Counted from the first letter of the stretch, positions 3,677-4,182 are shown. The stretch: 7,777 nucleotides of DNA from a virus (IMGVR_UViG_2645727743_000027); one strand, 5' to 3'. Numbers and translations: made by a program. The notes: a model not told the origin generated them from the letters alone.

Positions 3677-3898
3677 ATGGCAGACATCATTGATTCAGCA
3701 TCAGAAATTGAAGAATTACAGCGCAACACAGCAATAAAAATGCGCCGCCTGAACCACCAGGCTATATCTGCCACTCATTGTTGTGAGTGTGGCGATCCCA
3801 TAGATGAGCGAAGACGCCTGGCCGTTCAGGGTTGTCGGACTTGTGCAAGTTGCCAGCAAGATCTGGAGCTTATCCGCAAACAAAGGGGGATTAAGTGA
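3677..3898 (+). CDS. orf73: TraR/DksA-family C4 zinc-finger protein (73 aa), lambda orf73-like
   Basis: 73-aa ORF with CxxC-N17-CxxC (CCECGDPIDERRRLAVQGCRTCASC), the signature of TraR/DksA-type zinc fingers; size and position match lambda orf73, which I recall as a TraR homolog. Confidence 0.8.
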   Translation: MADIIDSASEIEELQRNTAIKMRRLNHQAISATHCCECGDPIDERRRLAVQGCRTCASCQQDLELIRKQRGIK

Positions 3899-4182
3899 TG
3901 GCTAACCTGCAACTTGCTGTTAAAAATGAATACTTCGATGCCATGATTCGCGGAGAGAAAACGGAAGAGTATCGCCTTGTTAATGACTACTGGAAAAAGC
4001 GCCTCGTTAACCGCGAGTATGGCAGTCTGATCATCACGAAGGGGTATCCGAAGCGCGACGATTCCAGCCGCAGAATTGATGTTCCGTATGGCGGATATGA
4101 AATCAAGACAATCACACATCCGCACTTCGGCGATAAACCGGTAAAGGTATACGCGATAAAGGTGAATATCGGCAATGAATAA
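3898..4182 (+). CDS. ASCH-like (PUA-fold) small protein, 94 aa from ATG 3898
   Basis: The N-terminal pattern LQLAVKNEYFDAMIRGEKTEEYR resembles the ASCH-domain N-terminal signature (for example E. coli YqfB). GGGGGA Shine-Dalgarno about 7 nt upstream; ATG overlaps the orf73 stop (TGATG). The track start at 3895 is a GTG one codon upstream. Confidence 0.6.
   Translation: MANLQLAVKNEYFDAMIRGEKTEEYRLVNDYWKKRLVNREYGSLIITKGYPKRDDSSRRIDVPYGGYEIKTITHPHFGDKPVKVYAIKVNIGNE

Follow-up and report, generated by a model that had tools for sequence, protein, structure and literature searches.

The hallmark of the ASCH cavity is the octapeptide GxKxxExR, located at the junction of helix 1 and strand 2 (PMC6803910), and this motif and its catalytic lysine and glutamate have been described in two reports (PMC6803910; bioRxiv 10.64898/2026.02.27.708502). 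In the latter, all 19 of the 19 ASCH proteins tested removed ac4C34 from Escherichia coli tRNA in vitro, and the motif lysine and glutamate were essential in TthASCH, EOLA1, and TRIP4; none of the 19 proteins was a phage ASCH, and some proteins of the 'GKER' type (ZmASCH and TRIP4) left free ac4C unhydrolyzed (bioRxiv 10.64898/2026.02.27.708502). YqfB, an N4-acetylcytidine amidohydrolase, has a Thr24-Lys21-Glu74 triad and makes use of the motif lysine and arginine (PMC6972931). ASCH proteins are also included in a list of putative E. coli RNA-binding proteins that are enriched in pathogens (PMC5571608).

In bacteriophage lambda, orf73 is separated from xis by the ORFs ea22, ea8.5, and orf55. 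The first of these encodes Ea22, a coiled-coil protein of 182 aa that is reported to favor lysogeny (PMC8614690). The 94-aa gene analyzed here is a genuine accessory gene of the pL operon in a lambda-like prophage, where it fills the slot taken by ea22 in lambda. The features of the window, by which we mean the whole stretch of DNA analyzed (7777 bases), are as follows.

1-7777, all genes on the + strand: whole window, leftward early (pL) arm of a lambda-like prophage
1-201, +: ral (ORF list, profile matches, and PGAP annotation of a near-identical prophage)
384-752, +: ea10-like gene
Between the ea10-like gene and gam, +: cIII and kil
1177-1473, +: gam
1479-2264, +: bet
2261-2941, +: exo
2932-3117, +: orf60a (DUF1317)
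3095-3286, +: orf63 (DUF1382)
Ending at 3578, +: orf61-like gene
3677-3898, +: orf73, TraR/DksA zinc finger, the upstream neighbor of the ASCH gene (Pfam zf-dskA_traR, E = 5e-09; phrog_54)
3885-3889, +: G-rich sequence (GGGGG) resembling a Shine-Dalgarno site, located within the final part of orf73 and 8 nt ahead of the ASCH start codon (read from the sequence)
3898-4182, +: 94-aa ASCH-type gene (ORF; PGAP; phrog_625)
3952-3975, +: codons 19-26, GEKTEEYR, the ASCH octapeptide GxKxxExR of the 'GKER' type (conservation in 90 relatives)
4184-4215, +: terminator-like hairpin (4184-4205) with a 9-bp stem, loop ATTG, and a T-rich tail (consensus scan)
4232-4975, +: antirepressor pseudogene (PGAP, internal stop; phrog_1726; F451 sequence)
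5298-5921, +: Ant
6006-6224, +: xis
6202-7275, +: int

Gene neighborhood and boundaries

A prophage 99.1% identical to the window adjoins mdtA in E. coli AMSHJX01 and in 15 other complete genomes, and PGAP annotates orf73 of this near-identical AMSHJX01 prophage as a "TraR/DksA family transcriptional regulator". The orf73 DNA can be aligned with orf73 of lambda and of Stx2a_F451 except for its last ~25 nt. The ASCH gene, which follows directly, sits in an early-transcribed operon together with the host-interference genes ral, gam, and orf73. In lambda, the GTG of ea22 overlaps the orf73 stop just as the ASCH ATG does in the window, although the two genes are unrelated in sequence. A tblastn search of the whole lambda genome with the ASCH protein gave a best E value of 6.4, at an unrelated place, and the ORF that begins at the lambda orf73 stop is ea22; the earlier proposal that lambda has no equivalent of the gene is thus borne out.

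The preliminary description had placed a 94-aa ORF at positions 3898-4182, and it is indeed present there according to the ORF list, the sequence, and PGAP, which calls an identical 285-nt CDS in the AMSHJX01 prophage with a one-base overlap with orf73 at locus position 5395. In the window, the start codon (ATG, 3898-3900) has its A in common with the orf73 stop codon (TGA, 3896-3898), giving TGATG, so that the overlap between start and stop, likewise described before, amounts to one shared base. The mechanical ORF list extends the frame to a GTG at 3895 (3895..4182). We place the start at 3898 rather than at this GTG, because the orthologues in Stx2a_F451 and in the Stx1 phage AP005153 start with GTG at the same codon, in place of the ATG of the window (V-ANLQ versus M-ANLQ).

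Translation of the ASCH gene is probably coupled to that of the TraR-like orf73 just upstream. The gene had been thought to carry no signals of its own, but the Shine-Dalgarno-like run at 3885-3889 is a candidate ribosome-binding site for it. In Stx2a_F451, the gene is preceded by a DUF551 gene and the sequence AGGAGG and starts with GTG. At the other end, an ATG found at 4175, which overlaps the stop of the ASCH gene, shares the reading frame of the next ORF in the window; mechanically, therefore, the stop does overlap the next frame, as originally noted. This arrangement is, however, not conserved in Stx2a_F451, in which a 1-nt indel shifts the equivalent ATG out of frame and leaves a 19-codon ORF. 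The start of the antirepressor, according to PGAP as well as the F451 annotation, is the ATG that corresponds to position 4232 of the window, 50 nt past the ASCH stop. Because the overlap is absent from Stx2a_F451, we rejected translational overlap with the downstream gene and regard the overlap of the stop with the next frame as coincidental.

The ORF at 3898-4182 is real and under selection. Three prophage copies yield dN/dS values of 0.18-0.26, indicative of purifying selection on the gene, and the 94-aa protein matches phrog_625 over its full length (E = 7.6e-48). The protein is matched at E<=0.001 by 767 cluster representatives, with identities down to ~40% among the matches listed, and full-length homologues extend to ~40% identity in beta-proteobacterial phages. 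It is a basic protein, with a pI of 9.3 (family median, 9.6).

Downstream region and other elements of the window

The hairpin at 4184-4205 lies in the 49-nt spacer after the ASCH stop, and its counterpart in Stx2a_F451 has an identical stem and a different loop. A second terminator-like hairpin with a T-rich tail is found on the + strand between orf61 and orf73 (3601-3625). The antirepressor gene beyond the spacer contains an in-frame TGA (4325-4327), where Stx2a_F451 gp08 has TGC (Cys), and its remnants are a 31-codon head (4232-4324) and a 186-aa distal ORF (4415-4975; phrog_1726, E = 9.9e-82).

Further along, a match to Rfam sRNA-Xcc1 that exceeds the gathering score (69 bits, 5170-5258) lies just upstream of Ant (5298), and ahead of it there is a sigma-70 promoter-like site of near-consensus sequence, TTGACA-18-TATATT (5055-5084); this combination suggests a dedicated promoter for Ant, together with a structured leader or an sRNA. 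Two features beyond int, a match to Rfam SIB_RNA at 7541-7683 (137.6 bits) and a direct repeat of 103 nt whose copies, at 7345-7447 and 7673-7775, are 93% identical, look like the ibs/sib toxin-antitoxin repeats of the host. In the opposite part of the window, a match to Rfam Lambda_thermo, the cIII thermoregulator element (88.5 bits, 812-870), is as expected for a lambda-like cIII.

Distribution and mosaicism of the gene

The annotation of the gene is already known from RefSeq proteins of the WP_001504519.1 type, from L0064 of phage 933W, and from phrog_625. WP_001504519.1, which RefSeq names 'ASCH domain-containing protein', is 98.9% identical at the protein level and 99.6% at the DNA level, and its gene lies in the same orf73-ASCH-antirepressor-Ant-xis-int arrangement as in the window. 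L0064 (AAD25409), in GenBank since the 933W genome record AF125520, belongs to the same gene family and is 88% identical. In 933W, the Stx1 phage AP005153, and Stx2a_F451, however, the gene has a GTG start and a more downstream position, separated from orf73 by several genes that include ea22 and a DUF551/EaA-like gene, whereas in the window it directly follows orf73 and starts with ATG. The antirepressor-Ant block comes next in Stx2a_F451, as it does in the window, and ea22, four small ORFs, and DUF551, all present in that phage, are missing from the window. Judged against F451, orf73 and the ASCH gene of the window seem to have been brought together by a deletion or a recombination event.

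Some database entries present the gene in a longer form. The representative proteins P0121 and P0122, of 201 and 267 aa, have Ea22-like or DUF551-like sequence on the N-terminal side of ASCH, and the annotated product is 121 aa long in the records of 933W and of the Stx1 phage (positions 3920-4285 of locus L003). These longer forms may represent true fusions or, alternatively, gene calls extended past the GTG start codon in the upstream direction. The Stx1 phage AP005153 also carries a second orf73/TraR paralogue outside the exo-xis block (positions 7632-8134 of L003). The 94-aa ORF after the second paralogue (b37), b36, was considered as a further ASCH copy and rejected, its translation being unrelated.

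The ASCH gene is also present in HK022, in Jersey-like Salmonella phages, and in P2-like Ralstonia and Acidovorax phages, and 332 phage records carry it in all; the first 9 kb of phi24B, including the exo-xis region, are without it. Matches were obtained in 1455 of the 5426 complete E. coli genomes (27%), at up to five places per genome, and the orf73-ASCH junction itself is found in 620 of these 5426. From this distribution in phages and in E. coli we conclude that the gene is a common mosaic module rather than a rarity of one lineage. The earlier view of a lineage-specific addition therefore holds as far as the absence from lambda is concerned, but not for the gene at large. Its upstream neighbors in E. 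coli vary (TraR, DUF551, DUF550, DUF4752, eaa, and MazG-like), and gene context therefore gives no functional pointer. A functional orf73-ASCH pair was likewise rejected, given that the upstream neighbor varies widely between prophages.

Relationship to the ASCH clan

Sequence profiles by themselves are not decisive for ASCH membership. A match to the Pfam ASCH model (PF04266, PUA-like clan), which the preliminary description had led us to look for, exists but is borderline: its score, 16.4 bits (E = 0.015), falls short of the gathering cut-off of 21.2, and it covers only an N-terminal stretch of 25 residues (residues 6-30; profile positions 1-25). The search with the Pfam DUF3850 model (PF12961), suggested alongside it, came back empty for the window protein at E<=1, and no NCBIfam model matches the 94-aa protein. 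Among 90 diverse relatives, five match ASCH at E<0.01 (best 0.0012) and three match DUF3850 at E<0.01, and these two are the sole recurring Pfam families. Searches of PDB sequences with phmmer and with the family profile returned no significant match, the only ASCH-type entry for the profile being 3IUW (E = 0.59), a DUF3850 protein deposited as 'activating signal cointegrator'. Aligned by hhalign to single sequences, the family profile gave no significant result with either YqfB (17 columns, probability 0.45; query identical to 1TE7) or EOLA1 (probability 0.40; query corrected against the 5Y7D alignment). Nevertheless, the weak sequence matches all lead to one clan.

An AlphaFold2 model built on the 90-sequence alignment has a mean pLDDT of 89.4 and a pTM of 0.78, with secondary-structure elements in the order strand-helix-strand-helix followed by four strands. 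In a Foldseek search of the PDB with this model, ranks 1-14 are all occupied by ASCH/DUF3850 structures (PH0355, 3IUW, 1WK2, ZmASCH, PF0470, TTHA0113, and YqfB), so that the comparison with YqfB-type folds proposed at the outset finds YqfB itself among the 14 best matches. The probabilities at these ranks are 0.77-0.98, with TMq of 0.36-0.56 and E values of 0.02-0.3, none of them <=0.001; YTH domains rank lower, with probabilities of <=0.33. Among the predicted viral structures of BFVD, the matches that do not belong to the family itself come from phages and bear the names DUF3850 or ASCH. Because the individual Foldseek scores are modest, we consider the 94-aa protein, as modeled, to be a divergent, minimal member of the ASCH superfamily of PUA-like beta-barrels and not a textbook one.

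The octapeptide, GEKTEEYR, is located in the model between helix 10-18 and strand 23-27. Across the 90 relatives, G19 is conserved in 85, K21 in all 90, E24 in 89, and R26 in 86, and threonine occurs at position 24 in none. About 19 alignment columns are >=90% conserved among the same relatives, and the tightly conserved set comprises K21, E24, R26, Y12/F13, W32, R35, G49-Y50-P51, G66, H74, and F77-G78. Y12/F13 lie nine/eight residues N-terminal to the lysine, a spacing like that of TthASCH Tyr14, and Y50, H74, and F77 are candidate counterparts of TthASCH Tyr81; in TthASCH, these two tyrosines position the nucleoside. ASCH membership is supported by two independent features, the motif and the predicted fold. 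The original characterization as an ASCH-like protein accords with the octapeptide, the fold matches of the AlphaFold2 model, the BFVD matches, and the RefSeq name, and the 94-aa ORF is very probably a real accessory gene with an ASCH fold.

Within the clan, the protein appears closest in its working, by analogy, to the GKER branch. TTHA0113 (2DP9), EOLA1 (5Y7D), and TRIP4 have the same octapeptide, in EOLA1 even with the same numbering (G19, K21, E24, R26), and TTHA0113 and TRIP4 are PDB fold matches 9 and 18, respectively. These GKER proteins are, however, 121-158 aa long and contain extra helices that the window protein is without; the sequence similarity is not significant, and the window family has conserved residues of its own (W32, R35, GYP, and HxxFG). 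YqfB (1TE7, 9KYH; PDB fold match 11, TMq 0.53) is a stand-alone ASCH barrel of similar size (103 aa), with the octapeptide lysine and arginine in common with the window protein, but it has threonine where the latter has E24 and is the product of a chromosomal housekeeping gene rather than of a phage gene. Assignment to the YqfB type failed because the residue at position 24 is glutamate and not threonine. DUF3850 (PF12961; Enterococcus 3IUW) is a short (~80 aa), phage-rich branch of the PUA-like clan that shares the N-terminal strand-helix-GxK with the window protein, and 3IUW is PDB fold match 2 (probability 0.98).

Putative function and alternative explanations

Our preferred reading is that the ASCH protein is a deacetylase of N4-acyl-cytidine, probably of tRNA ac4C, that acts early in phage development. 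We prefer it because the Lys/Glu pair of the tested GKER ASCH proteins is present and essentially invariant; argued by analogy with tRNA-erasing activities described in a preprint and in overexpression or in vitro assays, the assignment is put forward tentatively and with less than even confidence. In such an enzyme, the invariant K21 and E24, with R26 and the conserved Y12, F13, W32, R35, Y50, H74, and F77, would form a nucleobase pocket, and the K/E dyad would hydrolyze the N4-acyl group off cytidine, as its counterpart does in the GKER proteins that were assayed. Among E. coli substrates, ac4C34 of elongator tRNA-Met or free ac4C would be the likeliest target, and the protein would modulate the host at an early stage after infection or induction. 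The residues conserved within its own family (W32, R35, G49-Y50-P51, and H74-x-x-F77-G78) may point to a different substrate. Taken as a whole, the best explanation of the locus, namely a pL accessory gene with a GKER deacetylase function, is a provisional one that may well need revision.

A more far-reaching version of the deacetylase reading, which we regard as unlikely, would make the protein an early tRNA 'eraser' of temperate phages, one that takes the N4-acetyl group off the wobble cytidine (ac4C34) of the host elongator tRNA-Met or acts on a different cytosine of RNA or DNA that is N4-acylated or otherwise modified. Acting beside the RNA-polymerase-reprogramming Orf73, such an eraser could retune decoding or disarm a modification-dependent host function.

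A domain fusion was encountered in gp49 of the P2-like Acidovorax phage Alfacinha3 (positions 3001-4380 of locus L006), whose single ORF combines a homologue of the ASCH-like domain (aa 1-89; 51% identity) with a PAPS-reductase/PP-loop domain at aa 99-365; the gene adjoins genes for a C5-cytosine methyltransferase and a DUF4406 (nucleoside deoxyribosyltransferase-like) protein. The fusion fits a role directed at nucleic acids or bases. Ten long relatives that were searched for fused domains yielded none that is usable, the matches to RVT_1, SH3_18, and DUF3850 all being below threshold.

In the chief alternative, the barrel would instead be a non-catalytic reader that binds RNA or a modified DNA base and serves as a small regulator, a shield, or an anti-restriction or anti-defense factor, which we consider possible, if rather doubtful. 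PUA-like domains (EVE, YTH, SRA, and ASCH) widely serve as modified-base readers, and ASCH domains in defense-type operons have been predicted to bind modified DNA (PMC7641849, PMC12707154). The basic character of the protein and the host-interference genes that share its operon would suit a binding role, as would the position of the Alfacinha3 ASCH domain N-terminal to a PP-loop enzyme, a typical place for a targeting domain, and one structural neighbor in BFVD bears the name 'restriction alleviation protein', assigned automatically. However, the near-total invariance of the lysine and the glutamate that are catalytic in tested ASCH proteins exceeds what a binding surface usually needs, and PADLOC found no defense-system match for the ASCH protein or its neighbors, nor did a defense or anti-defense association emerge. 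The resemblance to Zymomonas ZmASCH, for which an ssRNA ribonuclease activity is reported (PMC5615036) and whose structures take PDB fold ranks 6, 7, 10, and 12-14, raises the further prospect of a single-strand-specific ribonuclease that degrades host or phage RNA early. We judge this very improbable, given that ZmASCH has ~145 aa and extra elements compared with 94 aa here, with target-normalized TM scores of 0.36-0.41, and that an unregulated enzyme encoded in 27% of E. coli genomes, at up to 5 places each, would need an immunity function, of which none is evident.

The surroundings of the gene could also be taken to indicate a spurious or decaying, functionless ORF at a junction left by the loss of ea22 and its neighbors: the adjoining antirepressor is a pseudogene, the region is mosaic, and ea22, the four small ORFs, and DUF551 of Stx2a_F451 are missing from the window. 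The conservation data effectively refute this idea. The dN/dS values, the full-length homologues in beta-proteobacterial phages at identities as low as ~40%, the ~19 highly conserved columns, and the confident fold prediction all speak against a functionless ORF, and its likelihood is negligible.

Discussion

The 94-aa gene is an ordinary, already catalogued accessory gene. In the literature on L0064, phage ASCH proteins, and DUF3850 in phages, we found no functional study of the family to which its product belongs, and the review of the exo-xis region makes no mention of an ASCH or PUA protein. The exo-xis region affects the lysis-lysogeny decision and the induction of Shiga-toxin prophages, and the functional work carried out there omitted the ASCH gene. 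The gene is nevertheless very widespread, as its occurrence in more than a thousand complete E. coli genomes illustrates, and the recent assignment of ac4C deacetylase activity to ASCH proteins makes its function directly and cheaply testable. If the deacetylase reading is true, the gene would represent a case of phage manipulation of host tRNA modification. Should the tRNA 'eraser' version hold as well, its product would be the first phage-encoded RNA-demodification enzyme of its kind, present in more than a quarter of E. coli genomes.
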